This document shows positions 21,376-55,322 of a DNA stretch of 64,000 nt, one piece after another. The notes under the pieces are model-generated. The model made no database searches and was not told where the DNA came from. It saw nothing but the letters and a program-made list of their open reading frames with translations. Source of the stretch: a virus; the IMG/VR virus record IMGVR_UViG_3300021963_007958, one strand, 5' to 3'. The translations under genes and the position numbers were made by a program. Every line of letters starts with the position of its first letter. Position 1 is the stretch's first letter.

Positions 21376-21407
21376 CAATTATTTTTTCTTTATATATCAG
21401 CAAATTG

Positions 21408-27400: not shown

Positions 27401-27855
27401 CTAGTTGCTAAGAAGTATTTAGTGTCTGCATACCAGAATCTCTCCTTGTTATAGTAAGAAGCTAGAAGTTTATCTGTTAAAATACCATTCTTTTGCTCGG
27501 TATCTACAGAATAACCAAAGTAAGGAACGACGTCTGCAGTTGGACTATCTACATCGTTATTTAATCTTAGCAGATTTAGAGCAAATACCGGACCTGCATT
27601 CAAACAGGTGAAGATAGATCTTTGAAAGAAAGATCCTTTTGCTTCTAGATTTTTATCTATATCCCCGAAGATGGCTAAAGCTGTTGTAACGTCTGGAATA
27701 TAGACGGGAGCGTTGAACGGGCCTTTGTTGGAAAATCCAACTACTAAACGGATAGTCTGAGTAGTTAGAATTACATTTGCCGACGCATCAAACTCCAAGG
27801 TGTAAACTCCAGAAGCTTTAAATTGGGATAAATCAAGTTTGACTTTTTGTGCCAT
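24487..27855 (-). CDS. gp18: contractile tail sheath protein (gp18-like) with large insertion
   Basis: SGVYTLEFD, GFSNKGPFN, VPPAAFV, GINPI, FGNQT, VHVRDLL, FDFN. Confidence 0.93.
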   Translation of the reverse strand: MAQKVKLDLSQFKASGVYTLEFDASANVILTTQTIRLVVGFSNKGPFNAPVYIPDVTTALAIFGDIDKNLEAKGSFFQRSIFTCLNAGPVFALNLLRLNNDVDSPTADVVPYFGYSVDTEQKNGILTDKLLASYYNKERFWYADTKYFLATRSIVDQGRIFNLVNLGNTPMSIIVRKSTDANPPLQGYDIFAIDWYGPGNVPSYVNPYDYISDWFIDVIAVAGDWTNYTALSQDPQWSSYFTPNGFIKSQITNFLNNADVNLVTIQTGCLIIDFVNLNGNNEYIQTLINNNTPSTGLFCAVDEDALENLCTNPYKVDLVGNHLIDELSGDRDIQDAKLNFLSYDQNLLQDYLYSKNYSILTANSGETGPVGTLYCLPGYKPGVDSTNLGGTAGVPYEGFLAYDPTQYVAGLHFLTAATGASGSFAGLTSADLLNMKDFLTPSSTSAPYIVGTVNGITAGYTDNVISQFSNGDLIKLQVANVNEVSGRLQIAFSHPLDITKYRDLGIVVTPYATDYSTTDYKPSGATGDVIGGTAYIFAASDALGISYSLNPGGTGATSSAATGGYVNALTGQLTTSFYQNVLYEELQNGDLIYTNASQTQEQYLTYALGVDRDQYSIYYAFAYTNVSRTATTLTPIANFGATYASNTTGQIAGYPATYKLDIVSSTGSINEFIEVAGGIGGKISVTSFKMNSDLYTISVGDLLVSTDQDLCQIENTNRQQRLTKVTSVATTSISGIVTVTTARPIYFYSGGSSGLQVQKFQSIPQFTTSFDFTYLEGFQLSDYHRPDGTDARVNAILDVMYNTNIAATLATKDVISFRYIVDTFSGVILPNSKYQLSKLAMMRGQALALINAPSMAQFQASVDPRFTAAPTAADPYPALQTQYIADGGNLSLNPTYTFSLPSQPLGASFAAFYAPYITLRENNRNVNVPPAAFVSNNFVAKFANGEPYAIVAGQKRGTIAGTNLVGVEYDFTQEDRGWLEPFGINPIIKKRGLGVVIFGNQTAYQTVNSAFSLVHVRDLLISVENDVEQILSNYLFDFNEDSIRLEIKTLVDNYLDGVRSGGGIYAYQVIMDASNNPPSVIDQNIGIIDVILEPARGIQKFINRITVTRTGGIAAGGFIQFV

Positions 27856-33151: not shown

Positions 33152-33192
33152 TTTACTGAATATATTCCTTCTATATATCCAGTCAAAAAAGA

Positions 33193-33582
33193 CTACACCA
33201 CAGAGGTGTGGTTCCTTCCATCGTTCCAGTAACTCTCATCTCCGTACCAAATGAAGATTTCCTCCCCGGCAATAATGTCTCTATTTGCGATAAATTTGAA
33301 AGTTCTTCTGTCAAGATCAGAAACCCAATATGCATTTGCAGGGTCTGAATGATTATATAAAGAACCATATCCCCAAGAAATAACCTGCTCCTCCCACTCT
33401 GTTCCCTGTGGCCAATTAAATCTATAGTCGATTAAAAGAGAGGAAGATTCACCCTTCTGAATCGGGAGGGGAAGCACAGGACACTCCTCAAAGACTTCCC
33501 CTTCTTTTATGTTCTCTTTAGCAAAAACCCCCCAGCCATGGATTGGACTTCTATCAATAAATATTTTAAAGTTGTGGATCAT
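33193..33582 (-). CDS. SET-domain protein-lysine methyltransferase
   Basis: SPIHGWGVFA, YNHS..AN, RDI.AGEEI...YG. Confidence 0.92.
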   Translation of the reverse strand: MIHNFKIFIDRSPIHGWGVFAKENIKEGEVFEECPVLPLPIQKGESSSLLIDYRFNWPQGTEWEEQVISWGYGSLYNHSDPANAYWVSDLDRRTFKFIANRDIIAGEEIFIWYGDESYWNDGRNHTSVV

Positions 33583-34379
33583 AGATTAAAATAGTCTTTT
33601 AGTCCTTCTTCCAAAGACCATCGGGAAGTCCAACCGGACATCCATTTCTTTGGATTGCTACAGGTATAAAATTGGTATCCCTGAGGGATTACGGACTGGT
33701 CTAGATATCCATACGGAATCCCCATAATCTCCATTACGTCTTCAAAGGGTCTTGCCACCCCAGACCCAACTTCATAATATCTTCCCTCTAGAAGACTATA
33801 GTTCTCCATGGCATGAATATTGGAAGAGACTATATCTTTCACATAAACGAAGTCTCTTCTAGGGTTCTTCGGAAATAAATTTATATTCTTTCCTTCAGAG
33901 TGTAATACGGACATCTGATAAGCAACCGATGCCATCTTGCCTTTATTTTCTTCACCCGGGCCATAAACATTAAAATATCTAAGTGCAATTCCTCCATTGG
34001 AGATCACATAGTCTTCTGCTGCATATTTACTCCATCCATATAAATTAGAGGGATATTCATCATTTATTCCGTAATTAGCAGCTGACGAAGAGTATACCAG
34101 GGGGACTTTCTCAGAAGAACAGAGATTTGAGAGGTGCTTGGTGAACTCGTAGTTGACCAACATCATGTAGTTAACGTCGGTTTCTAGAGTATTGGAACAC
34201 GCACCGACGTGGAAGACTGCGGAAATATCTAGCCAAAAGTGCTTAGAGACTTCGTCCCTCCAATTAACAGTTTGGAAAATATCCTCGTTAATTTCTATGA
34301 TATCATACTTGGAATCTAGCTCTCTTTTAAGATTAGACCCAATGAATCCTTTAGTTCCGGTTATTATTATTTTTTTCAT
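33579..34379 (-). CDS. hldD: ADP-L-glycero-D-manno-heptose 6-epimerase-like NAD-dependent epimerase
   Basis: ITGTKGFIGSNL, FHVGACS.T, YSSSAA.YG, YGWSK, LRYFNVYGP.E..KG.MASV, RDFVYV, YQFYT. Confidence 0.8.
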   Translation of the reverse strand: MKKIIITGTKGFIGSNLKRELDSKYDIIEINEDIFQTVNWRDEVSKHFWLDISAVFHVGACSNTLETDVNYMMLVNYEFTKHLSNLCSSEKVPLVYSSSAANYGINDEYPSNLYGWSKYAAEDYVISNGGIALRYFNVYGPGEENKGKMASVAYQMSVLHSEGKNINLFPKNPRRDFVYVKDIVSSNIHAMENYSLLEGRYYEVGSGVARPFEDVMEIMGIPYGYLDQSVIPQGYQFYTCSNPKKWMSGWTSRWSLEEGLKDYFNL

Positions 34380-34390
34380 TTCATTTCATT

Positions 34391-35221
34391 TTATTTATGT
34401 GCAATACAGATTCCATTTTCTCTAAAACTAATAAACCCTTTAGAGATTACAAAATTATTTATTTCTTCTCTTTTCTCCGTTGACAAATTATTATATTCAA
34501 AGACAATTAAATCCAAATGAGAATATTGATCATCAGAGAGACTATACAGAAGTTTATCGTCTATACCTTCAACGTCTAGATGGACCCACTTTGTATCCTG
34601 CGTGATTAGATCAGAGAATTTAATAGAGCTTCTTAGTGTGGAGGTTATCTCTTCAGTTTCCCACGACTCAATTACTGTTTTTTCTACGGAATTGGTATAA
34701 CCCTTTCCTCCTTCATAGAAAATAGTGTCTTCTCCATTATCCGTTACCAATTCATTAACAAAAGTTAAATTATCATAACTGGCATAGTTTTGGGAAAGCT
34801 CAGTAAATTGTTTTTCGCTAGCTTCTACTAGAGTAATATGGGCTAATTTATCTAGAGCTACAGGAACCCATTCACCAAATTCACCGCTATGTGTTCCTAC
34901 AACAACACCCTTTGAATTTGGGTTTATCTTACAATAATTCCACAGTTTTTGATACGGAAAGGTTCCGTTAGTAACAACATTCCATCGGTGGGTAAAAAGG
35001 TGGATCCCACAATTGTCTTTAACAATCACATCAATCATCTCAGTATCGGGAAATGTTGCCCAGCTATTGGAATTTAATCTCGTATCCCATATTTTCTTTC
35101 CATTAACTTGCCTCACAAAATCAAAGTGTAGGGGTAGTTGTTCACTGCTAAAAATCCCATTTAGATTATGGGTTTCTATTCTGATGCTGTCCGTACTATA
35201 ATTTATCTTAAACATTTTCAA
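34391..35221 (-). CDS. FkbM-like SAM methyltransferase with N-terminal beta domain
   Basis: VVGTHSG, LVEAS, LDVEG.D, FEY. Confidence 0.65.
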   Translation of the reverse strand: MKMFKINYSTDSIRIETHNLNGIFSSEQLPLHFDFVRQVNGKKIWDTRLNSNSWATFPDTEMIDVIVKDNCGIHLFTHRWNVVTNGTFPYQKLWNYCKINPNSKGVVVGTHSGEFGEWVPVALDKLAHITLVEASEKQFTELSQNYASYDNLTFVNELVTDNGEDTIFYEGGKGYTNSVEKTVIESWETEEITSTLRSSIKFSDLITQDTKWVHLDVEGIDDKLLYSLSDDQYSHLDLIVFEYNNLSTEKREEINNFVISKGFISFRENGICIAHK

Positions 35222-36179
35222 AGTAACTTATATTTCTAATAATTTCTTCGTGTTCACTAGAATAATCAATACCGTCTATTATTAATCGTTGAACACTTAG
35301 AGAGTCTTTTTCTATCTCTATAAATTTATTAGAGTTCAATAAAAAATTATAGCTTAACCCGTCACAAAAAACATCAACCCCTTTAGATACTTTTATGTCA
35401 TAGAAAAATAACCGTAACTTAGAGTCTAAGATTTCCATTACTGGAGGACTACCCTTCCAAGTTTCACAGGGTTCATTTTTATTGATAAACAATTTATAAT
35501 CGGGGCACTTAGAATAATCGAAAAAATCGAAATCTTCCCAATAATATATTTTGTCTTTAATGGGGTGAGGAGATATTTTGAGAGGTATTTCTTTGGCCCA
35601 TTTTAAGGCTTGTCCTTCAGCAACCCCATTACTATCCAAGTATGTTTTTCTGTCGATCATAGGTAAAATATCCTCCATCCTTTTTCTATCAAAAATCATA
35701 AGATGTAAAGTGGCTTCCCATAATTCATTAGGGTCGTTAGGATTAATTCTTGGGTGTATCAAATTACATTCATTAGAAAGAATTTCTCTTTCAATCTCAG
35801 AGTCAATTTCTAAATCATAAATTACGTGATAAAATAAATCATAGTCATAGTTTAAAGCTATTTGACTTAATCTCTTAACTTGGTTTAAGGCTGCCCATCC
35901 GTAATCTGCAATGTTTCTATGCATTTTTATAAATCCTTCCTCGTAAGAAATTGTCTTCCAAAAAGTGAAAGCTCTCTCTGGCCAAATTAGTAGAGGATTT
36001 TCTTTAGTGAAATAAAAATAGTCACACAATCTGATAACTTCCTGAGGGATTTCTATAAAATTAGGGCCGAGGCACATAACATCAAGTCCTAATTGTTTTA
36101 ACCGAATAATGTTTTCCCTTAAAATTTTTTGTTTTTCTGCTGTGTTACAAAAAGTGCTAATTAGGGCTAATTTTTTCAT
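35208..36179 (-). CDS. putative GT-A-like glycosyltransferase (paralog family)
   Basis: shares LIS.., ..ENP, YHVIYD with 37666 and 39188 ORFs; island context. Confidence 0.45.
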   Translation of the reverse strand: MKKLALISTFCNTAEKQKILRENIIRLKQLGLDVMCLGPNFIEIPQEVIRLCDYFYFTKENPLLIWPERAFTFWKTISYEEGFIKMHRNIADYGWAALNQVKRLSQIALNYDYDLFYHVIYDLEIDSEIEREILSNECNLIHPRINPNDPNELWEATLHLMIFDRKRMEDILPMIDRKTYLDSNGVAEGQALKWAKEIPLKISPHPIKDKIYYWEDFDFFDYSKCPDYKLFINKNEPCETWKGSPPVMEILDSKLRLFFYDIKVSKGVDVFCDGLSYNFLLNSNKFIEIEKDSLSVQRLIIDGIDYSSEHEEIIRNISYFENV

Positions 36180-37669
36180 AACATAAATTTAAATCTATAA
36201 TCTTTTTTAACTCCTAAGATTTCTTCAACACTTTTTTTAGTTACAATAATACAATTCTTGTAATGTGTGATCGATTCAATATTTTGGCGATTTTTAACAC
36301 TACTAAAATCGGAGTTTATTTTGTGTGGAACCGAAGAAAAATAATCAATAATATTGTAATTACCAATCTCATATCCATATATTGTTTCTTTGGGATTCCA
36401 GTAGTTACATTCAATGTCTTCAATAATATAAACCCCGCCTTCTTTTAGCATATTTTCAAATAGATAATTGAATGATTCTATTTGGTGTTGTGGCTGGTGA
36501 CTTCCATCATCAATAATAACATCGCACTGACCTATCAAATTAATCATTCTTTCCAAATCTTCAATCTTACTTTGGTCACCTTTATACATAATACCTCTTT
36601 CTTGATTTCTTTCTTCGGAGATATCCATAGCGTAAATCATACCATTTTTAAAATATTCAATCCACATTCTAAAAGAGGCCGCTTCACTACCAGAACCAAT
36701 CTCAAATAATTTTATTTTTTTATTCCTTAGTGGTTCTAAAAACTTTTCATAAATTCTATCATATCTATGTTCCAACACTTTATCTGTATTGTATTTTAAG
36801 CCAAGGCCATACATATCACTATTGTCTTGATTTCCAAGAATAATATTTACAACCTCATCAATAGCTTCTTTATAATCACTATATGGTCTAACACAGTTAA
36901 CATCAATATAAAACCCTTGTTTTAATTTTTCTATATCATATACTCCATATTTTTTTTGGTTCTCTATTTCACCATCCCATTTTAATTCCACAGGAAAGTT
37001 ATGCCTTTCTATTCTTCTTGGCGTTAAAAATTCTGTATAATGACCTCGTTTTAATTTAATAATCTCTACATCGTGTTGATTATTATTTACACAATCCGAA
37101 AAATAAAACTCGTCAATCAACCACATAATTTTATAGCCGTCTTTATGATTTGAGTGTCTATTCATAAATTCATCAAAAGAACAATCAGAATTTAATATTT
37201 TTGTGAAAGTTTTACCTTTGGCCACATTATACACATACCCGTACATCTCTTGTTTAAAAGGTAGTGGTTCTTTTACGAATAATTCGTTTGATTCGGGCCT
37301 GCTAAAATCATAAGCGTCACTCGACATTATAACGAAAGAGTCGTCCGGGTAGTGTTTTAATTGCTCAATAAAATAGTTTTTATTTATCATCAACATATCT
37401 AAATCCCCACATACACAAACATCCTCAGGAAAATATTTGGTACCGAACATTCTGACTGTGCAAGCTTGAATTGCAGTATGAATTCCTTGGACAGATTTGA
37501 TATTTTTTACTAATCCGTTTCCATCGTTATAGAACTCACTATCTTCATCAGAAATTTTAAAAAGAACCGGTTCCCAACCAAATAATTCTCGACACAATTT
37601 AGCTTGAATTGGCCAAAACTCTAAAAAGTAGGAGTTATCACTTGCGAATATTATTTTTTTTATCTTCAT
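36176..37669 (-). CDS. glycosyltransferase-like domain fused to class I SAM O-methyltransferase
   Basis: N-term GDLDML; C-term TDK..HRY..IYE, FEIG.G, GDQS, IIDDGSH, GGVYIIED. Confidence 0.75.
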   Translation of the reverse strand: MKIKKIIFASDNSYFLEFWPIQAKLCRELFGWEPVLFKISDEDSEFYNDGNGLVKNIKSVQGIHTAIQACTVRMFGTKYFPEDVCVCGDLDMLMINKNYFIEQLKHYPDDSFVIMSSDAYDFSRPESNELFVKEPLPFKQEMYGYVYNVAKGKTFTKILNSDCSFDEFMNRHSNHKDGYKIMWLIDEFYFSDCVNNNQHDVEIIKLKRGHYTEFLTPRRIERHNFPVELKWDGEIENQKKYGVYDIEKLKQGFYIDVNCVRPYSDYKEAIDEVVNIILGNQDNSDMYGLGLKYNTDKVLEHRYDRIYEKFLEPLRNKKIKLFEIGSGSEAASFRMWIEYFKNGMIYAMDISEERNQERGIMYKGDQSKIEDLERMINLIGQCDVIIDDGSHQPQHQIESFNYLFENMLKEGGVYIIEDIECNYWNPKETIYGYEIGNYNIIDYFSSVPHKINSDFSSVKNRQNIESITHYKNCIIVTKKSVEEILGVKKDYRFKFML

Positions 37670-38640
37670 TTGAAACTAAATTTTTTGAATTTTTCTTTAT
37701 CCTCTTTAAAGGAGAATTCACTTTTTATTTTATTATTTAAAATAACAGTTAAAGACTCAGCATTTTTGTAATCATCGATTGTAATTATTTTCCAATTATT
37801 TTTTGGGATGTCTCCAATATTGATTAATTGGTTATCATTATAAATTAATCTAACATTAATGACATCATTTGTGTGTTCCATATTCCACACAACAAATTCT
37901 AATTTATCTAAATCTCTGTTGTAAAAAGGTAAACACCAAGCTGTGTTGGTAGAGGCCAATTTGCCATGAGTTAAACCAAAATCATTATCTTGTAATAAAT
38001 CGGACTTAGATTTTACATAATAATTTTCAGAAAGTTTTAAAAGTTGTTGAAGCATGACCTCGGGAGTTTTATTAGTAGAATAGAGTATTTGACTCTTTAA
38101 ATAAGACTCATTTAATGTTAATAAATCTTTTGGGAGACTATCCAATTTATATGCTTGATAACTTCCAAATAAAACATCATTTAACACATCTTTATCGTTA
38201 ACATAAAAAATACTATCGTATGTGTCCAACAATTTAGAATTTTCAATTAGTTCCGAAAAATTATTAATAGATGAATCAAATTCAATATGATGGATTTTAT
38301 TATACCCCAATCCTTTGGCAAAAGAATTACCTAATATAATCATCCTCCAAATAGCCAACTGTTTGTTATACTCACCAGTAAATATGGATTGTATAGTGCC
38401 ACTATTGCCAGGATAAAAATATTGAAAGTCTCTAAATTCCCAGTCATAAATAAGTTCATTTTTATAATCGTATATACTATAATGACATTTTTCCTGAATA
38501 TCTTGGGGGATAGTAGTATGTGATACAATTAGTATATCAAAATATTCTTTTTGTAAATTAATTTGAATGACAAGATTTCTTAAAGTTTCTTGTTTATCTA
38601 AAGTATCGGAATAATTAGATATTAGAATTAAATCTTTCAT
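37666..38640 (-). CDS. putative GT-A-like glycosyltransferase (paralog of 39188..40183)
   Basis: ATG at 38640 overlaps the upstream gene end; IVSHT.IP.DIQ, LAIWRM, HHIEFD, LFGSYQ. Confidence 0.5.
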
Positions 38641-39185
38641 AAGAATTTTTCTATAAAATTGTCGATATTGTCGGACCACATATTCATCGCATTATCTCTA
38701 ATTTTTTGTTCCTCCCAGTTCCACCAAGCAATTGATAAAAGTTTTTCAATTTGTTCTTCAGTGAATCTATACTTAACAATTTTAGCAGGATTACCTGCAA
38801 CAATTGCATAAGGGGGAACGTCTTTGGTAACAACAGAGCCCGCAGCAACAACTGCACCATTTGAAATTTTAACCCCCGACATTATTGTGGCGGTCGCCCC
38901 AATCCAAACGTCGTTTTCGATAATTATATCACCTTTACAAGATGGGTGTCCCATATCCATGTGCATCTGAGCAATCTCATGATTTACTGGTCCCCAAAGC
39001 TGGGATGAAGTTGTGATCCAATCGGGTCTATGGTTTGCATGCAAAAAGAAATTACAATCTCTACCTATTGAGTTGTACTTACCTATTCTGACGTGATATT
39101 GGTCGCTCCATGATATTATATTAACGTTTCTATCGAAATATGTTCCTCTATCGGAGTGCCACAAATGTATGTTTTCTATACTCAT
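38637..39185 (-). CDS. CatB/Vat-related hexapeptide O-acetyltransferase
   Basis: [36 protein letters not shown]. Confidence 0.88.
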
Positions 39186-39187
39186 GA

Positions 39188-40183
39188 CTAAAAAGATTCT
39201 TTGTGTCTAAAACTGATTTTTTTAAAAATTTCTATTTCTTCTTCTGTATCCAAGCTAAATTTATCTTTAACTTCTTCGTCTTCAATAACTAATATACGTT
39301 TGATATCTTTAATATCACCTAAGTCTACTATCCTCCAGTGATCGAGCATAGTTAAGGGAACATTAACTACCTTCTCGTCATTGATGATGATATTGTACTT
39401 AACCCCTTTTTCTTTTTTGGTATTCCAAATTATGAAACCAACAGTGTCCTCCAATTGATCATAAAAAGGAACCCCCCAGGGAATGAATTTAACTCCAACC
39501 TGACCATCTACAATTCCAAATTTGTTACAATCTGTGTTTAAACTAATCCTGGATTTTTTGTACACCTTTCCCATTTGTTCTATGAGTCTCTGTAGCATCA
39601 ATTCCGGAGATTTCGATTCTGAATTACGAATCATATCCTTTATTTTTTCCTCATCTAGTATAATCAAAAAAGGATTAATATTAGGGACAAAATAAGACTG
39701 AAAACTGCCAAATAAGATGTCGTCAACTGTATCTTGACTGTCTATATAAATCACAGAGTTATGCTCACCAAGTAGCTGAGAGTTATGTACAAATTCATCA
39801 ACACTAGAGATTTCGCAATCATACTCGATGTGATGAACTTTGCTATAGCCCATATTTTTAGCCATCGAAAATCCCATAATCATCATTCTCCAGATGGCCA
39901 GGTGTGTGTTCTTTCTGCTTAAAAACGAAGACTGAATTCTTCTCTCGTCGTTGGGATTAAACCAGGGCTGATTTAATAGATCCCAGTCGGTTAAGATTTC
40001 GTTTTTGCTGTCATAAAAGCAATAATTAACTTTTTTCTGGATGTCCAGAGGAACGGGGGTATGGCTAACAATTAAAGTATCGAAAGTATCTTTAAACCTT
40101 GTTAGAGAATTTACTAAATTTCTTAAAATAATTTCTCGATGTTCATCGGGACAGTATGTAGTAATTAAAATTAAGTCCTTCAT
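39188..40183 (-). CDS. putative GT-A-like glycosyltransferase (paralog of 37666..38640)
   Basis: MKDLILI, IVSHT.VP.DIQ, LAIWRM, HHIEYD, LFGSFQ. Confidence 0.5.
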
Positions 40184-40761
40184 TTCTTAATTTTTTTACT
40201 CGGTACCCCCACATAGATACCAGGCCTAGTTATGTCCTTTACAACTGCTGAATTCATCCCTATCTTAACAAGGGACACAATTTTAATTTTTTCCCTAATA
40301 TTTGAACAACTTCCCATATAAACAACATCTCCAATTGATACATTCCCACCAACAACAGAACCCGGCATAGCACTAAAAAAATCACCAATCTGGCAATCGT
40401 GCCCTATGTGATTACCTCTGTTCAATAGTGCGTGTTTACCCAATTTAATATTTGAAGTTAGTATCGAGTATGCACCGATAAAACTACCTTCTCCGATTTC
40501 AATATCGTTACTCATAATTAAAGCCGTTGGATGGATCCAAGTAAAATACTTTGTTTCTTTTGGTAATCTTTGTATTATATCAAACCTATCCTTTGAATCA
40601 GCAACTGCAACCATTAAAACATATTTTTTCGGATTGAATTTTGATAATGGTTGTGTTCCTTCAACTACATACTCATCGTCCACAAAACAAGTAAGTTTTA
40701 CCCCCATCTGAGCCATAACCTCACGGGCGTGACCTCCATAGCCAACTAAAGCTTTTTTCAT
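40180..40761 (-). CDS. NeuD/PglD-family sugar acetyltransferase
   Basis: GYGGHAREV, IHPTA, IGHDC, hexapeptide repeats, GVP. Confidence 0.88.
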   Translation of the reverse strand: MKKALVGYGGHAREVMAQMGVKLTCFVDDEYVVEGTQPLSKFNPKKYVLMVAVADSKDRFDIIQRLPKETKYFTWIHPTALIMSNDIEIGEGSFIGAYSILTSNIKLGKHALLNRGNHIGHDCQIGDFFSAMPGSVVGGNVSIGDVVYMGSCSNIREKIKIVSLVKIGMNSAVVKDITRPGIYVGVPSKKIKK

Positions 40762-41402
40762 TTTTTGTATACATCAAATTGAGATAGATCCGGGTATGGT
40801 AATTCTAAATCTTGGTTGTGTTTCTTAGTCCCATCAAGATTATAGAATTGATTCATTAGTAATAATCCTCTTGTTGCAAGTTCTGGCATCATATAAAAAT
40901 TCCAACCTAACATATCAAGGTTATCATCATGATATGAACATTCACGTCTTCCACTATATCTTGCTCTTTTAAACCAATGGTAAGCATCTAAACTATCAGT
41001 CAAAATCGCCCCGCCTTTACTTAATTTAAAATGTTTATATGGACCGGTAAAAGAAACACACATGTGACTACCTGGTCTATACATGTCCGCAGTAAACGAC
41101 AAAGCAGAATCCCAAACATTTGAACCGATTAGCTGGTACGCTCCTTTTATTGTTCTACCTTCAACGGGTATGAAATTTACTTTTAAACCAGCATGTATAA
41201 TTTCACACGGAACAGATGGATATGTTCTATTCGGGATTGAAATTTTATCTCCCTTGATTGACTTAACTATATTTTTTTCATAGTACAACGCCAAGAATAA
41301 AGCGTTACTCATGTTATCAAGGGTGACAACATAAGGTGCTCCTGTGTATCTTCCAAGTTCTTTTTCAAAATCGTCTGTTATCTGATAAACTCCGTTAGCC
41401 AT
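40758..41402 (-). CDS. DegT/DnrJ/EryC1-family PLP aminotransferase (short form)
   Basis: FEKEL, SNALFLAL, WDSA, SF..YKH...KGGAIL, GWNFYM. Confidence 0.8.
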   Translation of the reverse strand: MANGVYQITDDFEKELGRYTGAPYVVTLDNMSNALFLALYYEKNIVKSIKGDKISIPNRTYPSVPCEIIHAGLKVNFIPVEGRTIKGAYQLIGSNVWDSALSFTADMYRPGSHMCVSFTGPYKHFKLSKGGAILTDSLDAYHWFKRARYSGRRECSYHDDNLDMLGWNFYMMPELATRGLLLMNQFYNLDGTKKHNQDLELPYPDLSQFDVYKK

Positions 41403-41414
41403 ATATCTTTAATA

Positions 41415-42143
41415 TTAATTTCTATTATCTATGTGGATTATAACCTGTCGGTAATACTCCAAAAAATGATCATTCCACAAATCCCACTTTATGTCAATAT
41501 TATCTACTGAATAAATTTCGTAATTCTGAAATTTGGATAAAAAACCGTCCCTGAACTGTCTAAATTTTTCAATGTAGTTGTGTCCCTGTAGTTGTAGATG
41601 CCACTCCCCTGTAATTTTTTTAACATTTGATTTAATCCAATCTAGATTTTCTAAAGTAAATATATCAAATTCTCCCCCTTCACAATCCGTTTTTAGAAAA
41701 TCAATTTTTTCAATCCCGTATAGATTGATAAACTTTTGAAAAGTAATTGACTCCATTTGGGCTTCACCCCCAAATAAGTGGTCATTCCCAACTATAGAAT
41801 TTACACTAGAAATTCCCTTTGGGATTGGTACTACCGGGTAACCTTTGGTGTTATTAACCAGAGTTTTAAACTCCCGTTCGCTTGGTTCGAAACAAAATAT
41901 CTGTTTAGGGTTTTTATGCAATACTGAATATGCAAAAGGTCCTACGCTTGCTCCTATATCGAGAACAACATCTCCTTCCTCTACTTCGAAGAATTTTTCG
42001 TAGCACTTATCTACAAATATTTCCTGTATGATCGAGTCTTTATGATATTGTCCCATCCCTTTATGTGAACCATCGGACATTATATGGTAGGTGTCAGAGG
42101 GCTCGTCCATCCAACCCCAATTGAAATTTGTTAAGTCTATCAT
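41415..42143 (-). CDS. FkbM family methyltransferase
   Basis: VLDIGASVG, FEP, IDFLKTDCEGGE, GEWH. Confidence 0.88.
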   Translation of the reverse strand: MIDLTNFNWGWMDEPSDTYHIMSDGSHKGMGQYHKDSIIQEIFVDKCYEKFFEVEEGDVVLDIGASVGPFAYSVLHKNPKQIFCFEPSEREFKTLVNNTKGYPVVPIPKGISSVNSIVGNDHLFGGEAQMESITFQKFINLYGIEKIDFLKTDCEGGEFDIFTLENLDWIKSNVKKITGEWHLQLQGHNYIEKFRQFRDGFLSKFQNYEIYSVDNIDIKWDLWNDHFLEYYRQVIIHIDNRN

Positions 42144-44449
42144 TTTGGTAAAGCATTAAATACTGTTAGTGGGGATATAGATTTTGAACAGATGTGTTGT
42201 TTATCTGTTCCTTTCCAAATTGGACACCAGTCCCAATCTCCTGCATCAAATATAAAGTTAATGTTTGCCCAGCAAGAATTGCATGCGTGTTCATTTTGAA
42301 TTCTTGTGATGTTTGTTCCAAACTCATGATCTTTTGCGGTGAATCCACTGATCATAACCGTATGCTTTCCTAGGGACCAATTGATCCAAGCTAAACCGGA
42401 ACTTAATCCTATGAGATATTCTGCATGGAATAGAATATTGAAAGAGTCTTCCAGGGATTTACCATGGACACATTTTGCATTTTTAAGGGTATATGGTTTA
42501 TGGGTTAGACATACTACTTCATATCCCTCTTCCACCAACATGTTTGTTAATATTTGCCATCCTTCGTAAGTCCACTCTTTACATCCTGCCGTTGATTCGG
42601 GGGCAATCACAATGTATTTGTTTTGATATGGTTTATCCTTTGGATTGAATTTAATTCCGTAATTTCTTTCTACAAAATCCAATCCTAAAATATCACTTGC
42701 TGTTTTTTGTAATGGTTGAGAGTTCAAAGGATAGGGGTAAGAATCAAACTTATCCCATCTATTTTTATCCGAACGAAACCATCCAACCCTGTAAATTGAA
42801 TCACAATGAGTCTTTTGTCCTGGGCTGATAAATTCAATATCCGAGTAATCTTTGACTCCTTCAAACCAGTTGTTATGAAATGTCGATAAGATTACCTTAC
42901 ATCCATTCTTCTTCGAGAAATCAACAACATAAGGTGCCCATGCTAAGGTGTCCCCAATCGATTTAGACTCAAAAGAGATCAAAACCCTTTTGTTTTTAAG
43001 GGTGAACGTGTCAATAACTTTCCCGTTAACTTTTATAATCCAATCAATGTAATACTTCTTTGAACAAGAACACCACATATTATTAGTTATAGTTTGAGAA
43101 TGAAGAACTTTATCTGTTTTTGAATCGACAAATTCAATTAAATATGCGGCGTCATAATCCCCAAGAATCTCAACTTTTGGACCCTCGAAATAACTCACGT
43201 TGATTGAATTTGTATCTGAGTTTTTATTGTATTCATCGGAGCTGATTTTTTCCATAAAGGCATTAACTTTTTCCTGTCCTATTTTTGCAACAACCTCCCA
43301 TGAAAATTTGTCCCTTAAATCAGAACTTTCAATGACCGCCTTTTCTTTATAGGAATCATAATTCTCGTATACATCTCTCATGACTTCAGATAGATGTCCA
43401 AAATCAGGCTCGTAATAATTTCCTGGAAGTTCACTCATAGTGTACCTTCCATAGTTATTTTTATTTGCAGGTTTTTCTCCCAGAATTTTTACAGGTATTC
43501 CCTTTCCTTCCGCAAACTCCATCTGAGCGCAGCACTCGGAATAAATAGAAGGGGTTCCGCAAGCCATAGCTTCGATAAGTGGTAAATTCCACCCTTCAGA
43601 TCTTGCACAGGAAACAAATACGTGGCCGGTCTTAAGATACTTGATATAATCCTCCCTCGATGGAAAATGTATAATTTTAATCCGGGGGTCGATTAATCCA
43701 TAATTTTGTAAACGTTCTTCGGTCGTCTTAAATCCATCCATTTCTTCACCCCACATGTTATCAATAGACACAATCAAGTCAATAGGTTCTTCAGGGGAGA
43801 AAGTACTAAGAAAGGTTTCAATAATTTCTTTAGTCGATTTTCTATAGTCCCAACGACCCATAAGGAGAAATTTAAATCTATCGTCTCTATATTCTTCAAG
43901 CGGTTCAACCTTTTCCGGGTAAAATGTATGCACATCCACACCTTCGGGGACAACTTTAACTTTATCTGGGTCGGCACCTTGTTCAATAGTACATTCTCTT
44001 TGCCATTTACTCGGAACCCAAATCTCATCAAATTTCAATAGCTGGTTAAAAAAATCATCAGGCTGCCTTGTTGACTCCCATACGTTATATGCAATCTTTG
44101 GACCAATATACTTATCATAATAGAGATGATGATTAGTCTCATTTAACACAATATTAAAGTCTGGTCTAAATTCTTTTTCGGGGGATTCATAAATCTTAAA
44201 ATCCTCCATTTTGCCATCTGCAACCCACAGTCTTTGTTGGTACAACAAAGATTTATCAACCTCGTTTAAATAAGGTTCTCCATCGTGGGGAGTGCTATTC
44301 AGTCCATTCCATGAATTGCCTACGGTAAAATTTCTAACTTTAATTTCCGAATACTTTGAAAGTTCTCTGAAGAAATCCCGGGTGTGATTATTGTACCCGG
44401 TAGTTCCAATATAAGAACCATGTGCATAAATTTTAATCCTATTCTTCAT
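42140..44449 (-). CDS. GT4 glycosyltransferase fused to Aah/TibC-like protein O-heptosyltransferase
   Basis: GT4: VPSKW, GRWDYRK, RSEGWNLPLIEAMACG; TibC-like: SKKYY, SIGDTLAW, PLQKTASDILG, SSGLAW, MISGF, CNSCW..CP..C. Confidence 0.85.
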   Translation of the reverse strand: MKNRIKIYAHGSYIGTTGYNNHTRDFFRELSKYSEIKVRNFTVGNSWNGLNSTPHDGEPYLNEVDKSLLYQQRLWVADGKMEDFKIYESPEKEFRPDFNIVLNETNHHLYYDKYIGPKIAYNVWESTRQPDDFFNQLLKFDEIWVPSKWQRECTIEQGADPDKVKVVPEGVDVHTFYPEKVEPLEEYRDDRFKFLLMGRWDYRKSTKEIIETFLSTFSPEEPIDLIVSIDNMWGEEMDGFKTTEERLQNYGLIDPRIKIIHFPSREDYIKYLKTGHVFVSCARSEGWNLPLIEAMACGTPSIYSECCAQMEFAEGKGIPVKILGEKPANKNNYGRYTMSELPGNYYEPDFGHLSEVMRDVYENYDSYKEKAVIESSDLRDKFSWEVVAKIGQEKVNAFMEKISSDEYNKNSDTNSINVSYFEGPKVEILGDYDAAYLIEFVDSKTDKVLHSQTITNNMWCSCSKKYYIDWIIKVNGKVIDTFTLKNKRVLISFESKSIGDTLAWAPYVVDFSKKNGCKVILSTFHNNWFEGVKDYSDIEFISPGQKTHCDSIYRVGWFRSDKNRWDKFDSYPYPLNSQPLQKTASDILGLDFVERNYGIKFNPKDKPYQNKYIVIAPESTAGCKEWTYEGWQILTNMLVEEGYEVVCLTHKPYTLKNAKCVHGKSLEDSFNILFHAEYLIGLSSGLAWINWSLGKHTVMISGFTAKDHEFGTNITRIQNEHACNSCWANINFIFDAGDWDWCPIWKGTDKQHICSKSISPLTVFNALPK

Positions 44450-44457
44450 AGGGAAAA

Positions 44458-44736
44458 TTACTTCTGTTTAGGAGTGTATATTCCGGTACCAAAGTCCAAA
44501 TCTCCCTCACCATATTTGGATGTAATCTCCTGGACTACTCTAGTTTCTTCCATGCTTAGATCTTCGGAAACCGAGTAAGCTTGATCTAGATCCCCGAGAA
44601 TCTGATCTAAATCTAACTGAGTAAAATGTCTTTTGATGTTAAGTCTTCCTATAGACTCGACGTTGGTCCTAATTCTTTCTCTAAGATCTAGTAGAGAGTT
44701 TAATTCTTCCTGTGAAATTTTTATCTGATCTGACAT
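44458..44736 (-). CDS. hypothetical coiled-coil protein
   Basis: ORF track; KYG.G..D..TG C-terminus. Confidence 0.65.
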   Translation of the reverse strand: MSDQIKISQEELNSLLDLRERIRTNVESIGRLNIKRHFTQLDLDQILGDLDQAYSVSEDLSMEETRVVQEITSKYGEGDLDFGTGIYTPKQK

Positions 44737-44790
44737 ATGAATACTTTTTTATCTTTATTCATATAGAAAAATCGGTAGATAGTTTCAACA

Positions 44791-44816
44791 AAAAAGCTCA
44801 GATTTCTGAGCTTTTT
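44791..44816. terminator. intrinsic terminator
   Basis: AAAAAGCTCAGA-tt-TCTGAGCTTTTT. Confidence 0.75.
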
Positions 44817-44839
44817 AAAATATTTTTTGACGATTCATT

Positions 44840-45169
44840 TTACCATCCGGTGAGAATAGTTCTCTTCCAAGTGTCTGTTCCAACACAAACATAAAGCCAG
44901 TCTGAGTCGAGAGCCAATTGCCCAGTTGCTCCAGTGGCTCCTGAAGATCCTGGCGGGATGTCAGTAACTAAATAAGTTCCGGTTGGACCTACCGGTCCAG
45001 TGGGTCCAGTTCCCCCAAAATATTCTAAGTTAATCCAAGGAGTCTGTCCGTCTCCGATCTTTGCATATCCCGTATTTAGCTCGTAACCAAATTCTCCTTG
45101 CAGAAGGATAGGATTATTTGAAGTCCAGTTGGACGATGTGTCTCTTCTAATTTGTATTCTATATGCCAT
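44840..45169 (-). CDS. small fiber-like protein (Mtd/hyaluronidase N-terminal domain + short collagen-like stretch)
   Basis: IQIRRDT..NW...NP.L..GE.GYE..T...KIGDG..W; GPTGPVGPTG; YVCV....WKR. Confidence 0.75.
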   Translation of the reverse strand: MAYRIQIRRDTSSNWTSNNPILLQGEFGYELNTGYAKIGDGQTPWINLEYFGGTGPTGPVGPTGTYLVTDIPPGSSGATGATGQLALDSDWLYVCVGTDTWKRTILTGW

Positions 45170-45171
45170 TT

Positions 45172-45486
45172 TTACAATTGATTTAGTAATCTTGTCTGAG
45201 TTGGAAATTCTCCCCCGATGATAGGGCCATAGAACTGAGCAGTTCCGTCTTCCGATGTTCCTCCATCCAAGATGTCTCTAAAATTATTTTCCACTGAGAT
45301 CTGCTTAGTCCAAAAATTTCCAAAAGTCGAATAATTTCTAGTCTCAGTTCTTGCGGACTTCTTGACATAGTTATTTTCGGTTCCAATAAAATAGAGGGTG
45401 TCAGAAGTCTGGCTGCTGGATCCATCAATGATCCTAACAGAGAGTCCCGGTTCTAATATTGGGTTATTTGGAAAATTATTAGCCAT
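45172..45486 (-). CDS. hypothetical late protein
   Basis: ORF with late motif at 45507-45514. Confidence 0.55.
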   Translation of the reverse strand: MANNFPNNPILEPGLSVRIIDGSSSQTSDTLYFIGTENNYVKKSARTETRNYSTFGNFWTKQISVENNFRDILDGGTSEDGTAQFYGPIIGGEFPTQTRLLNQL

Positions 45487-45538
45487 AATACAATTCAGTA
45501 TTTTTCTATATATTCAATCTTTCAAGAAAAATCCAGGA

Positions 45539-46288
45539 CTAAAATAAACTAGAATTACCCGGCAAATTTGTCTGTTCGTCTGTCGATATCTTTAATCTAA
45601 TTCCAGCCTGCATTAAATTTCCTCTAAATCTTTCCGTCTCGAGATCTTTTTGAGGATAGTAAGTTTCAACTGCAACACTAAATGTGGTTTCTATCCATTT
45701 TTGGGTGTTTTGGTAGCTAAACTCTAATTGCTTATCATTTTGATATTGCTCGGGAAATCCAACTTGAACTGGAACTCTCATCCCTCCAAATTCGACACTG
45801 AAGCTGAAAACCTTATAGAAAACTTGGATTACTGCCTGAAATATTTTAAAAGTATCTAAAAGTGTATCTGCCCTTAGCTTAACATCGAAAGTCATCGAGA
45901 GCGGAATAGAAGTTGTGTATGCAGAATATGCTTTCATCTGGCCCTGGACATCCTCCACGTTATATGTTGCTCTAACAAATCCGCTAGTTAGAGATGCAGT
46001 CTCAATATTAACTCCAGTTAGTGTAACAATTCCTCGGGGAATAATATCATAGTTCCCCTCTGCAAATGGGGACTGTCCATCGCAGTCTAAATAGTCAAGG
46101 TAAAAGTCCTGAAGGAAAGTCTCGTCCCCTGACATCGAGTAAAAGAATGGGATGTAGACCTGGAGAATTTGCTGTTGTTGATTGATCTGAGTATATGTAA
46201 CCCTCTCGTTTAAATTCCTCAGCAGACCAACGATTATTCCTCTTAAGAATACCTCATCAACGTTATATTTTTCTAAAAATCCTGACAT
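45539..46288 (-). CDS. gp15: tail sheath stabilizer/terminator (gp15-like)
   Basis: IPFFY, IPRG, IPLSMTFDV pattern; ATG at 46288 follows upstream stop. Confidence 0.7.
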   Translation of the reverse strand: MSGFLEKYNVDEVFLRGIIVGLLRNLNERVTYTQINQQQQILQVYIPFFYSMSGDETFLQDFYLDYLDCDGQSPFAEGNYDIIPRGIVTLTGVNIETASLTSGFVRATYNVEDVQGQMKAYSAYTTSIPLSMTFDVKLRADTLLDTFKIFQAVIQVFYKVFSFSVEFGGMRVPVQVGFPEQYQNDKQLEFSYQNTQKWIETTFSVAVETYYPQKDLETERFRGNLMQAGIRLKISTDEQTNLPGNSSLF

Positions 46289-46289
46289 A

Positions 46290-47162
46290 TTATGATACAA
46301 TTACAAAGTTTGTTTTAGTGATGCTAGATGACCCGTTTGCATTAGTTGCAGTTAGTGTAACGGTATAAGAACCAGTTGCTCCAAAAGAGACTAGGGGATT
46401 TTGAGCTGTTGCTCCAGTTGCACCTGCACATGCTCCAGTTCCTCCAAAGTTCCAAGACCAAGATGTTGGTTGTACTGTGGTTGGGGTTCGAACGGAAAGA
46501 TCCAAAAATCCGACAGTTCCTCCCAATGAAATTGCAGTCCCCCCAGTCTGTCCAAAATAAGTGGAGAAATTTGGATAAGGAGGCATAGGAAGCATTCCTT
46601 TTTGAGTTTGAACTCCGGAGGGGGTAAGTGGAAAATTCGGAGCCCCTATTGGAACATTATCGAGCCTTCCTGGAATAGTTTGAACTATAACAGGAACTTC
46701 TGCATATCTAAAATACAATGGAGTGTTCTCCATTGTTGTATAAACTGGGTGCTGGAAAGAGTTATTCTCGTATTCGGTTTGGGTAAGACCGTAAACACTA
46801 TTCTGTTTCATTCCAAGTTGAGTTGCACAATCAGAAGAAGTAATTGGTCCTAAAGTTCTAACTACAACAAAAGAATAGAGTTTTTCATCTCCTGCTGGAA
46901 TATAAGTGTTCTCGTACTGGGCAAAGAAAATTGAGTAGGTCTGAACTGAAGTCTGAGCGTAGACCGGGTTTCCTTTAGAGTTGGTTTCCGGGACATATTC
47001 AGTAGCAACTACAGGAAGTGGTTTCAAATAACCAATTCCGAGAAGACCTTTACCTTGGGTGTTGGGTTCAACCATTGTAGCTTGAACAGCAGTAAGTCCT
47101 TTCTTCTTCAGATCGGACTTAGTTACTTGTAAATTTTGATTTCTGCTATATAGTGGCTTCAA
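46290..47162 (-). CDS. PKD-domain virion protein
   Basis: PTSWSWNFG...QNP...G.YTVTLTATN..GS; late motif at 47183-47190. Confidence 0.75.
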   Translation of the reverse strand: MKPLYSRNQNLQVTKSDLKKKGLTAVQATMVEPNTQGKGLLGIGYLKPLPVVATEYVPETNSKGNPVYAQTSVQTYSIFFAQYENTYIPAGDEKLYSFVVVRTLGPITSSDCATQLGMKQNSVYGLTQTEYENNSFQHPVYTTMENTPLYFRYAEVPVIVQTIPGRLDNVPIGAPNFPLTPSGVQTQKGMLPMPPYPNFSTYFGQTGGTAISLGGTVGFLDLSVRTPTTVQPTSWSWNFGGTGACAGATGATAQNPLVSFGATGSYTVTLTATNANGSSSITKTNFVIVS

Positions 47163-47204
47163 TGTTCCAGACTTATTTCCACTATATATCTGGATGGAAA
47201 GAAG

Positions 47205-54754: not shown

Positions 54755-55273
54755 TTAGATTCCGAAAGTAATAACGCAGAAGTACCTTATTCCTGGTTCT
54801 CCTTCGAAGATGTAGTTTTGATCCTTTACAATTTTAATCCCAACTTTATGAGCATCTTTATGAATCATTGCTTCGTTGTGTCCGGGGCTAAGTTTAAAAG
54901 ACTCTATTATTTTTTTGGCAAGGTCTTTATTGAAATAGTTAAATCCTTTTAAAGATCCCTTTCCGCCTAAAGTAATTTCTTGTCTACCAAATGGGCAATC
55001 CAAACCAGAGAAGTGTTTAATTCTTTCATCTGGATCTGAGATTTCATCAAATCCAGGGAAGTCTTGAAATTCAAAGTGAGTTACACTATCAGATAAAAGT
55101 TCATATTTTACTTGATGTTCAGCAGCTTTACAAAGACCTTTGTCGATCACTAATGGGCTTAGACCTTTAGAAACTCTATATTCGTTCAAATATTTAATAG
55201 TCTTTAATTCAGAAGAGTCTTGAGCTAAAGCTAAGATTGGAATTAAGAAGGAGATTAGAGCTAATTTTTTCAT
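54755..55273 (-). CDS. secreted CAP/SCP-domain protein
   Basis: signal peptide MKKLALISFLIPILALA; LNEYR..GL.PL, SPGHNEAM. Confidence 0.8.
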   Translation of the reverse strand: MKKLALISFLIPILALAQDSSELKTIKYLNEYRVSKGLSPLVIDKGLCKAAEHQVKYELLSDSVTHFEFQDFPGFDEISDPDERIKHFSGLDCPFGRQEITLGGKGSLKGFNYFNKDLAKKIIESFKLSPGHNEAMIHKDAHKVGIKIVKDQNYIFEGEPGIRYFCVITFGI

Positions 55274-55322
55274 GATCTTTGATGTTTGGTTCATATAAAT
55301 ATACGAACCTCGGGACAAATAA

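Follow-up and report, generated by a model that had tools for sequence, protein, structure and literature searches.

Which molecule does a phage decorate when it carries its own set of sugar genes: its virion proteins, the surface of its host, or its DNA? The question is raised by a locus in a 64,000-nucleotide stretch of IMG/VR record IMGVR_UViG_3300021963_007958 (hereafter, the window, to which all coordinates refer unless another locus is named). The source is an uncultured giant T4-like phage, and every gene of the window lies on the minus strand. An earlier note, made from the letters alone, had described an operon at 33579 to 44449 whose products would build a methylated and acetylated glycan on virion proteins or host surface receptors rather than on DNA. 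Pfam, NCBIfam, and PHROG searches recovered the listed genes at their places on the minus strand, and the tightly coupled operon described from the sequence is real. Our preferred interpretation, to which we give an even chance, is that this unit encodes a wholly cytoplasmic pathway for O-glycosylation of the phage's own structural proteins; we infer the donor sugar, the acceptor, the order of the steps, and the biological role (masking, stability, or adsorption).

The evidence centers on a 769-residue bifunctional enzyme (42140 to 44449, minus strand) in which a family 4 glycosyltransferase (GT4) domain (residues ~1 to 400) is fused to a domain resembling BAHT enzymes such as TibC (residues ~415 to 769), with a beta-barrel, a GT-B core, and an iron finger. 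The BAHT half scored 228.6 bits against TIGR04414 (cut-off, 200), covering model positions 11 to 370 of 374, and the enzyme scored 26.3 bits against the model of lipopolysaccharide (LPS) heptosyltransferase I. Pfam gave 42.4 bits for Glycos_transf_1 (cut-off, 26.4), 30 bits for GT9, and a weak match to TibC_1st (E 0.0024), so that the GT4 and GT9/TibC assignments of the earlier note were borne out, as was that of an FkbM protein described below. TibC is the best solved sequence relative (PDB 4rap; E 3.5e-36), with ~27% identity to the BAHT-like domain. In an AlphaFold2 model, strands at residues 415 to 494 precede the GT-B core, and Foldseek placed TibC 4rap at the top (E 7e-23; TMt 0.74 over ~377 columns); matches to the GT4 half included MshA, PimA, and a glycosyltransferase of PBCV NY2A.

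Residue conservation was read from an alignment of 52 non-identical phage homologs mapped on TibC. D500, T620, K624, and W688, which correspond to TibC Asp110, Thr226, Lys230, and Trp305, are invariant, and so are both glutamates of the GT4 motif EX7E (E285 and E293). In TibC, Asp110 is catalytic, Thr226 and Lys230 contact the beta-phosphate of the donor, Trp305 contacts heptose O4, and the iron finger grips the protein substrate (PMC4358343). The CNSC...CP...C cysteines that the earlier note had pointed out (C723, C726, C742, and C754, in the pattern CNSCW...WCP...C) are likewise invariant and align with TibC Cys339, Cys342, Cys358, and Cys370. The four-cysteine iron finger is conserved, and metal binding is predicted for it, the AlphaFold2 model being of low confidence in this segment. 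Taken together, the BAHT-like domain looks catalytically competent, yet it forms a distinct viral branch; heptosyl transfer to protein serine is its predicted activity.

The GT4-BAHT fusion is abundant and virus-restricted. The architecture is present on 112 IMG/VR contigs, at 53 to 76% identity, and in 2513 protein clusters of a 5.8-billion-protein collection, where the JGI automatic name is "autotransporter strand-loop-strand O-heptosyltransferase." The longest recorded contig to encode the window protein has 145,616 bases. Among cultured phages, a full-length relative occurs in Microcystis phage Mel-JY01 only. A scan of one genome per species for 185,579 prokaryotic species returned a single cellular match, a 3.9-kb contig of a Candidatus Woesearchaeota metagenome-assembled genome (L088; JABMPP010000123.1) whose product is 83% identical to the window enzyme; this contig is most likely a mis-binned phage fragment. 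A HMMER search with the BAHT half gave 1333 metagenomic representatives at 50% clustering, 352 to 2033 residues long, with the domain at any position; the best 150 of them are 35 to 58% identical to the window domain. In eight large representatives, it is combined with GT4, FkbM, other methyltransferases, GT25, or further GT9 domains. No publication on the fusion was found in literature searches on phage-encoded BAHT/TibC-type enzymes and on Mel-JY01. As for the island as a whole, megablast gave no match among 50,697 phage records, and an exact 44-base probe had no copy in IMG/VR.

We clustered the open reading frames (ORFs) of 80 related loci for synteny (L-numbers below designate related loci, and G-numbers designate five related records searched whole). 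The gene that adjoins the fusion in 68 of 78 loci encodes a small coiled-coil protein. In the window, this is a 92-residue protein (44458 to 44736, minus strand) with a conserved C-terminal KYG.G...G..T motif; it is homologous (BLAST E 4e-9; alignment) to the product of an 83-residue gene directly downstream of the fusion in other lineages. It is a candidate adaptor or chaperone, and a profile search of PDB and searches of Pfam (nine members), PHROGs, and the Atlas gave generic coiled-coil or viral hypothetical matches only. Of 65 loci, 61 have a sheath gene no more than 4 kb downstream of the fusion. Where at least 8 kb of upstream flank was available (26 loci), 17 loci had collagen-like ORFs, and all five records searched whole have Pfam Collagen matches, including a 3469-residue open frame with collagen repeats. 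Immediately upstream of the fusion, marine lineages carry genes for giant collagen/PA14 proteins, a 775-residue protein that joins GT4, GT25, and a 2-oxoglutarate (2OG) oxygenase, and a prolyl 4-hydroxylase-like oxygenase, a set typical of collagen modification. We considered the sheath as a universal target on the strength of its adjacency and set it aside: it is ~14 kb from the fusion in the window lineage, and the constant neighbor is the small coiled-coil gene.

The marine gene set deserves a description of its own. In L064 (983 to 9987, plus strand) and its equivalents in L016, L018, L050, and L053, collagen/PA14 genes stand with the GT4+GT25+2OG-Fe(II) oxygenase gene, a gene for an oxygenase resembling prolyl hydroxylase, and, in one to three copies, a gene for a 250-residue protein. 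It looks like a phage kit for collagen hydroxylation and glycosylation, reminiscent of LH3 or Mimivirus L230. BLAST at E 1e-3 did not match the GT4 domain of the fusion with that of the marine oxygenase protein, leaving paralogy unsupported.

Domain fusions in other phages tie further genes of the island to the lead enzyme. In L079 and L080, an inserted homolog of the window FkbM protein (41415 to 42143) separates the GT4 domain from the BAHT domain. The Mel-JY01 enzyme (1226 residues) unites GT4, a segment related to the GT-A-fold paralogs described below, an S-adenosylmethionine (SAM) methyltransferase, and BAHT in one chain, and its methyltransferase segment is 45% identical to the C-terminal half of the window protein at 36176 to 37669. 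In L005, paralog B and the FkbM-like protein are fused into one 599-residue protein, which indicates that the two are functionally linked. Gene junctions and fusions together suggest that the island works as one pathway. Overall, the neighborhoods favor the virion over the host surface as the acceptor, without proving it.

As targets, fiber-type and collagen-like proteins of the neck and tail region are the most likely. Upstream of the unit lies the gene for a 109-residue fiber-type protein (44840 to 45169, minus strand; Pfam Mtd_N, 53.9 bits; PHROG tail-fiber families), a candidate acceptor that contains short collagen-like GXT/GXS triplets, in the runs GGTGPTGPVGPTGTY and GSSGATGATG; its L002 ortholog has a longer GXT run. 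Two more candidate acceptors are a 104-residue protein with 19% Ser+Thr (45172 to 45486, minus strand) and a 290-residue Pfam PKD-domain protein with 21% Ser+Thr (46290 to 47162, minus strand). A gp15-like tail terminator (Pfam T4-gp15_tss) is encoded within 45172 to 47162 on the same strand. Farther away, a late gene adjoining a baseplate-hub-like gene encodes a mucin-like 436-residue product (20068 to 21378, minus strand; 27% Ser+Thr) with S/T/P tracts and lysine-rich low-complexity stretches. This protein, which had no family match, may receive glycans or else serve in tail assembly as a disordered protein.

The earlier note left the acceptor between virion and host surface and set DNA aside. 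Its preference for protein over DNA was strengthened by the agreement of the lead domain with the BAHT model and its invariant catalytic and iron-finger residues, by the solubility of all island proteins (no transmembrane-grade segment in any of them; best 19-residue Kyte-Doolittle mean, 1.38), by the virus-restricted distribution of the fusion, and by its setting in structural modules beside fiber, collagen-like, and sheath genes, with fusions to methyltransferase and GT-A parts; the choice between virion and host is unproven. We regard it as highly improbable that the glycan is built on modified phage bases as a protection against restriction. A review (PMC12619734) states that DNA is a frequent substrate of phage glycosyltransferases and that DNA glycans of several sugars are known to exist, and the window encodes a serine hydroxymethyltransferase that could feed hydroxymethyl-pyrimidine synthesis. 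Yet Pfam and NCBIfam searches found no hydroxymethylase, base-modifying, or DNA-binding domain in the operon, the lead domain shares ancestry with a protein O-glycosyltransferase and has a conserved substrate-gripping iron finger, and the genes conserved around it belong to the virion and to collagen-like proteins rather than to replication.

A second alternative, the main rival of our interpretation though one that we consider unlikely, is that the enzymes remodel the host envelope. They would act on LPS core or O-chain intermediates at the cytoplasmic face, or on a surface protein before its export, so that receptors are changed and superinfection by competing phages is blocked. Glycosyltransferase and LPS-like genes in the host-recognition clusters of pelagimyophages have been read in this way (PMC7029224). 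The GT9 relatives WaaC and WaaF are soluble LPS-core heptosyltransferases, and this scenario is therefore compatible with the absence of transmembrane segments. It would also fit the low G+C and variability of the island and the non-late promoter-like site at its head (see below). In contrast, the lead enzyme scores far higher as a BAHT equivalog than as LPS heptosyltransferase I, as given above, and keeps the iron finger that grips proteins; its gene is confined to viruses and fixed in structural modules, by genes for collagen-like fibers and collagen-modifying oxygenases. Pfam, NCBIfam, and PHROG searches of the island did not find export or ligation functions; no flippase, polymerase, ligase, or polyprenyl-phosphate transferase was matched. 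Glycosylation of the virion accounts better than envelope remodeling for a lead enzyme of protein type, for a distribution limited to viruses, and for the collagen/fiber setting.

The operon itself is larger than first described. The unit comprises 13 ORFs at 33193 to 44736 (minus strand; ~11.5 kb), reaching beyond the initial borders to a SET-domain gene at 33193 and to the coiled-coil gene at 44736. The tight coupling noted earlier is evident at its junctions, with eight 4-base overlaps, one 14-base overlap, and otherwise gaps of 2 to 12 bases. Its G+C content is 0.341 (core, 0.324), compared with 0.377 elsewhere, and is the lowest among all 11.5-kb stretches in the window. As the earlier note had placed it, the unit stands between a gp15-like gene and short fiber genes upstream and neck protein and terminase genes downstream; the sheath gene also lies downstream. 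A terminator-like hairpin of 11 pairs with flanking A and T runs (44791 to 44816, minus strand) separates it from the upstream fiber-type genes; after this hairpin, the promoter-like site GAAAC-N16-TATATG (44760 to 44786, minus strand) heads the unit, and a second terminator-like hairpin (33197 to 33212, minus strand) marks its 3' end, after the SET-domain gene.

Two classes of promoter-like motif are overrepresented in the window. GAAAC-N16-18-TATAWK occurs 6 times (0.95 expected), with every copy on the minus strand and most of them ahead of genes; its sites (e.g., 3998, 10170, 44760, 53266, and 62564) precede the glycan operon and non-structural genes. RATATATAR, presumably a late-type motif, occurs 13 times (4.4 expected), always upstream of genes; its sites (e.g., 11205, 27928, 33171, and 47182) precede structural genes, and the copies at 45506 to 45514 and 47182 to 47190 belong to late genes that neighbor the operon.

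Several observations weigh against O-glycosylation of the virion by way of heptose, and the first concern the lead enzyme. The tip of the beta-hairpin thumb (TibC 264 to 272) falls in a nine-residue gap and is deleted in the whole phage clade; in TibC, Phe265 and Val266 of this tip build the dodecamer (PMC4358343). TibC Arg286, which contacts adenine N1 and excludes guanine (PMC4358343), is replaced by Ser669 in the window and by V, S, I, or T across the clade, with no conserved arginine nearby. With the thumb tip and Arg286 lost, the donor nucleotide, the oligomeric state, and substrate handling may differ from those of BAHTs. Moreover, no autotransporter partner is encoded in the window, where the neighbors are phage fiber and neck genes, and a self-BLAST of the window proteins gave no internal-repeat protein of at least 200 residues and no autotransporter-like repeats. 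Although the domain passes the BAHT threshold, the absence of thumb, Arg286, and partner led us to class it apart from orthodox BAHTs, as a viral variant of its own.

Further points concern the supply of the sugar. The gene gmhA is absent from the five related records, one of which was judged 100% complete, and an HldD-like gene is absent from the 89-kb contig of the closest relative (35% complete). Consequently, the proposal of the earlier note that ADP-heptose is the source of the heptose was not established. The setting adds others: the window fusion is ~14 kb from the sheath gene rather than adjacent to it, the 109-residue Mtd_N protein is the only collagen-like acceptor near the operon and is very short, and some of the conserved synteny may be owed to common ancestry and not to function. 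There are no copies of RATATATAR across 33180 to 45505, and thus none in the glycan operon; since its head carries a promoter-like site of the other class, it may be expressed at another time than the neighboring late genes, and coexpression with virion proteins would be an assumption. Finally, pelagimyophage islands of a similar kind have been read as modifying the host O-chain (PMC7029224), and, the phage being uncultured, a virion glycan is a prediction from genes.

Several of these points would also fit a third alternative, possible though improbable in our judgment, in which the acceptor is a phage protein as we propose but priming draws on a nucleotide sugar other than ADP-heptose (a GDP-linked heptose, say, or a hexose), with the HldD-like enzyme an accessory in some lineages. 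The loss of Arg286 and the missing gmhA speak for it, and an HldD-like gene was found in only 6 of 81 loci (the window included) within fetched flanks of up to 10 kb. On the other side stand the invariant equivalents of Thr226 and Lys230, which contact the beta-phosphate, and of Trp305, which contacts heptose O4, as well as the recurrence of HldD-, RfaE-I-, and RfaE-II-like genes in fusion-bearing phages. In G004 (105815 to 107369) and G005 (63696 to 68160), genes resembling those for the RfaE-I kinase, the RfaE-II nucleotidyltransferase, and HldD lie near one another; this set would amount to part of a nucleotide-heptose pathway, with gmhA and gmhB missing. The position that governs C6 stereoselectivity also argues against another donor: it is Pro300 in TibC and Ser294 in AAH, where both heptose epimers are accommodated (PMC4358343), and it is Ser in the window enzyme and Ser or Gly across the clade. 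It does not inform on HldD: Ser is found in each of the three HldD-linked lineages, but also in many other lineages. Heptose thus seems a reasonable but unproven donor, and its precursors would plausibly come from the host. E. coli, for its part, makes ADP-heptose.

Two other observations touch on heptose supply. In L005 (1 to 2617, minus strand), RfaE-I-, RfaE-II-, and HldD-like genes stand alongside those for a cupin, a GT-D-like protein, and a 250-residue sulfotransferase-like protein, as judged from sequence. In the window, a tblastn lead for RfaE-II (54938 to 55036; E 0.04) was rejected because it belongs to a CAP-domain protein.

The remaining genes of the unit point to sugar tailoring and extension. 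The HldD-like nucleotide-heptose 6-epimerase (33579 to 34379, minus strand; 266 residues) matched TIGR02197 at E 9.5e-55 and PDB 1EQ2 at E 6.7e-33. Its score of 186 bits is under the cut-off of 274.6, and it is shorter than the usual ~310 residues; HldD is still by far the best match among short-chain dehydrogenases/reductases, and its GTKGFIGSN, NLYGWSK, and NKGKMAS segments align with the glycine motif and the Tyr140/Lys144 (YxxxK) and Lys178 regions of E. coli 1EQ2. The DegT-like protein (40758 to 41402, minus strand; 214 residues), resembling pyridoxal phosphate-dependent aminotransferases, reached 44.1 bits against Pfam DegT over profile positions 25 to 99 only; it has weak PDB matches to E1 and ColD and retains the position of the Schiff-base lysine. 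The earlier identification of these two enzymes therefore stands as to best match, motifs, and lysine, with the reservations that the first is below the equivalog cut-off and the second is short. This miniature form (214 to 226 residues) is conserved in nine loci, the window and eight related ones; its first 86 residues alone match Pfam DegT (25 to 99 of 360), and it is unusually short for a fold-type I aminotransferase.

Both hexapeptide acetyltransferases named in the earlier note were recognized. One is a NeuD/PglD/VioB-type sugar N-acetyltransferase (40180 to 40761, minus strand; 193 residues) with a full-length match to TIGR03570 (146 bits; cut-off, 160.8) and Pfam Hexapep and PglD_N; the other is a Vat/CatB-type O-acetyltransferase (38637 to 39185, minus strand; 182 residues) that scored 132 bits against NF000311, below the cut-off for resistance enzymes, and matched Pfam Hexapep and phrog_16087 (E 1e-47). 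As for the FkbM methyltransferases, the SAM-dependent enzyme at 41415 to 42143 (minus strand; 242 residues; Pfam Methyltransf_21, 33.6 bits) is probably a sugar O-methyltransferase, whereas the match of the 276-residue FkbM-like protein at 34391 to 35221 (minus strand) is weak (TIGR01444, E 0.0019). A 497-residue two-domain protein (36176 to 37669, minus strand) ends in a class I SAM methyltransferase (phrog_21658, E 6.5e-19, residues 288 to 423); its N-terminal half may be a further GT-A/GT8-like transferase, as suggested by language-model feature similarity to viral proteins in the Atlas. The SET-domain protein lysine methyltransferase (33193 to 33582, minus strand; 129 residues; Pfam SET, 58.3 bits) is encoded by the last gene of the unit, which overlaps the HldD-like gene by 4 bases. 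A SET-domain gene also accompanies the island in L017 and L005, which hints at a joint toolkit for glycosylation and lysine methylation of proteins.

The three glycosyltransferase-like paralogs of the earlier note have a predicted GT-A fold by AlphaFold2 and Foldseek, with no canonical DxD motif and no Pfam family match. They are A1 (39188 to 40183, minus strand; 331 residues; C-terminal beta-sandwich; predicted local distance difference test score, 87.5), A2 (37666 to 38640, minus strand; 324 residues; internal ATG at 38640), which is 39% identical to A1, and B (35208 to 36179, minus strand; 323 residues), which is 16% identical to A1 and shares its invariant residues. The gene for A2 has the lowest G+C content of the island (0.26), and its start overlaps the upstream stop by 4 bases. 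In the AlphaFold2 model of a paralog, a GT-A fold is followed by a beta-sandwich, and Foldseek matched TarS, glycogenin, GnT-I, and COLGALT1 at E ~5e-6; the probability for TarS, glycogenin, and GnT-I was 1.0, at template modeling scores of ~0.35 to 0.58. N61, D122 (in a YD motif), and E194 are invariant in 18 homologs.

From these parts, a pathway can be proposed for O-glycosylation of the virion proteins. Nucleotide sugars would be derived mostly from the host. The HldD-like epimerase would adjust the C6 configuration of a nucleotide-heptose, and the short DegT-like enzyme and the NeuD/PglD-type acetyltransferase could turn a 4-keto-6-deoxy sugar nucleotide of the host into an acetamido-dideoxy sugar; a host intermediate is assumed here because the operon contains no 4,6-dehydratase. 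The BAHT-like domain, with Asp500 as the base, would then put the first sugar, probably heptose, on Ser or Thr of a folded or folding acceptor. The glycan would be extended by the fused GT4, the three GT-A-fold paralogs, and possibly a fourth GT-A-like domain, and would be capped by the FkbM-type and class I methyltransferases and by the Vat-type acetyltransferase. The SET-domain enzyme may methylate lysines on the same proteins.

How does such a pathway compare with known systems? Its lead domain is homologous to the BAHTs TibC and Aah (TIGR04414; PDB 4RAP/4RB4) over the full length of the beta-barrel, GT-B core, and iron finger; like them, it is a soluble cytoplasmic enzyme with the catalytic Asp, Thr/Lys, Trp, and four Cys conserved. 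Unlike them, it is fused to GT4 and, elsewhere, also to FkbM, SAM-methyltransferase, and GT-A parts, lacks the nine-residue thumb tip, Arg286, and the autotransporter partner, and occurs in viruses only. Virion glycosylation in mycobacteriophages is a precedent (Freeman et al. 2023, via PMC12619734). As far as that review describes those phages, they share with the window glycosyltransferase genes beside structural genes and, as the proposed outcome, O-glycans on virion subunits. They differ, on the same account, in enzyme family and in phage and host groups; the operon described here is far larger, with six putative transferase domains plus sugar-tailoring enzymes, and is known from genes alone, and its targets would be fibers rather than the C termini of capsid or tube proteins.

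Other parallels in gene content come from eukaryotic viruses and bacteria. The R132-L142 fibril glycosylation clusters of Mimivirus encode an aminotransferase, an N-acetyltransferase, a methyltransferase, and glycosyltransferases (PMC10117803, PMC8456856). Such giant-virus clusters resemble the phage unit in being autonomous sets near a decorated structural gene, in viruses that also have collagen-like proteins and enzymes to modify them; in contrast, the unit belongs to a bacteriophage, has a BAHT-like priming enzyme, and lacks a 4,6-dehydratase. In the Bacillus exosporium, the collagen-like GXT/GXS repeats of BclA carry short O-glycans that end in a methylated, N-acylated 4-amino-4,6-dideoxy sugar (PMC12357932). 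The enzyme types needed there (aminotransferase, N-acyltransferase, methyltransferase, and glycosyltransferases) are mirrored in the phage, but this is an analogy without shown homology: the glycosyltransferases differ, and the phage acceptor is a candidate. The islands of pelagimyophages and cyanomyophages (PMC7029224) are similar in placing variable glycosyltransferase and sugar-nucleotide genes, including rfaE-type genes, among the tail-fiber genes of aquatic T4-like phages, but no BAHT-type protein glycosyltransferase was reported there, whereas the lead enzyme here points to a protein acceptor. Unlike O-antigen and capsule loci, the island showed no membrane initiating transferase, flippase, polymerase, or ligase in the Pfam, NCBIfam, and PHROG searches.

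Some features of the window lie outside these comparisons. The tail sheath (24487 to 27855, minus strand) has 1122 residues, about twice the 574 to 889 residues of the sheaths in related loci, a size that suggests large inserted domains. A second glycosyltransferase group, running off the window end (62594 to 63984, minus strand), begins with a GT6-family protein (235 residues; E 1.7e-27) and a GT2-like protein. The serine hydroxymethyltransferase (55323 to 56603, minus strand) is full length (Pfam SHMT, 535 bits), and its gene is beside that of the CAP/cysteine-rich-secretory-family protein (54755 to 55318, minus strand).

We tentatively extend O-glycosylation of virion proteins from this phage to the whole family, a generalization that we hold to be plausible but doubtful. 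In this scenario, GT4-BAHT fusions would be a virus-exclusive, globally abundant family of O-glycosyltransferases that coat collagen-like and neck/tail fibers with methylated heptose-based glycans. These enzymes would differ from their relative TibC in having no thumb and forming no dodecamer, would work with a small coiled-coil protein as a dedicated partner, and would be found in aquatic myoviruses that include SAR11-type marine, jumbo freshwater, and Microcystis phages.

Phage particles are usually regarded as bare protein, and self-encoded virion glycosylation has been shown to date in mycobacteriophages and giant eukaryotic viruses. If the family-wide scenario is correct, this would be the first phage-encoded protein heptosylation, and many environmental phage particles would be glycoproteins. 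It would also extend BAHT chemistry past enterobacterial adhesins and provide a natural variant without the dodecamer, of use in studies of mechanism and possibly in glyco-engineering. Glycosylated fibers would bear on adsorption, on resistance to proteases and grazing, and on recognition by host defenses, as well as on the annotation of the "LPS-like" auxiliary genes of marine T4-like phages, which are now read as modifiers of the host O-antigen.

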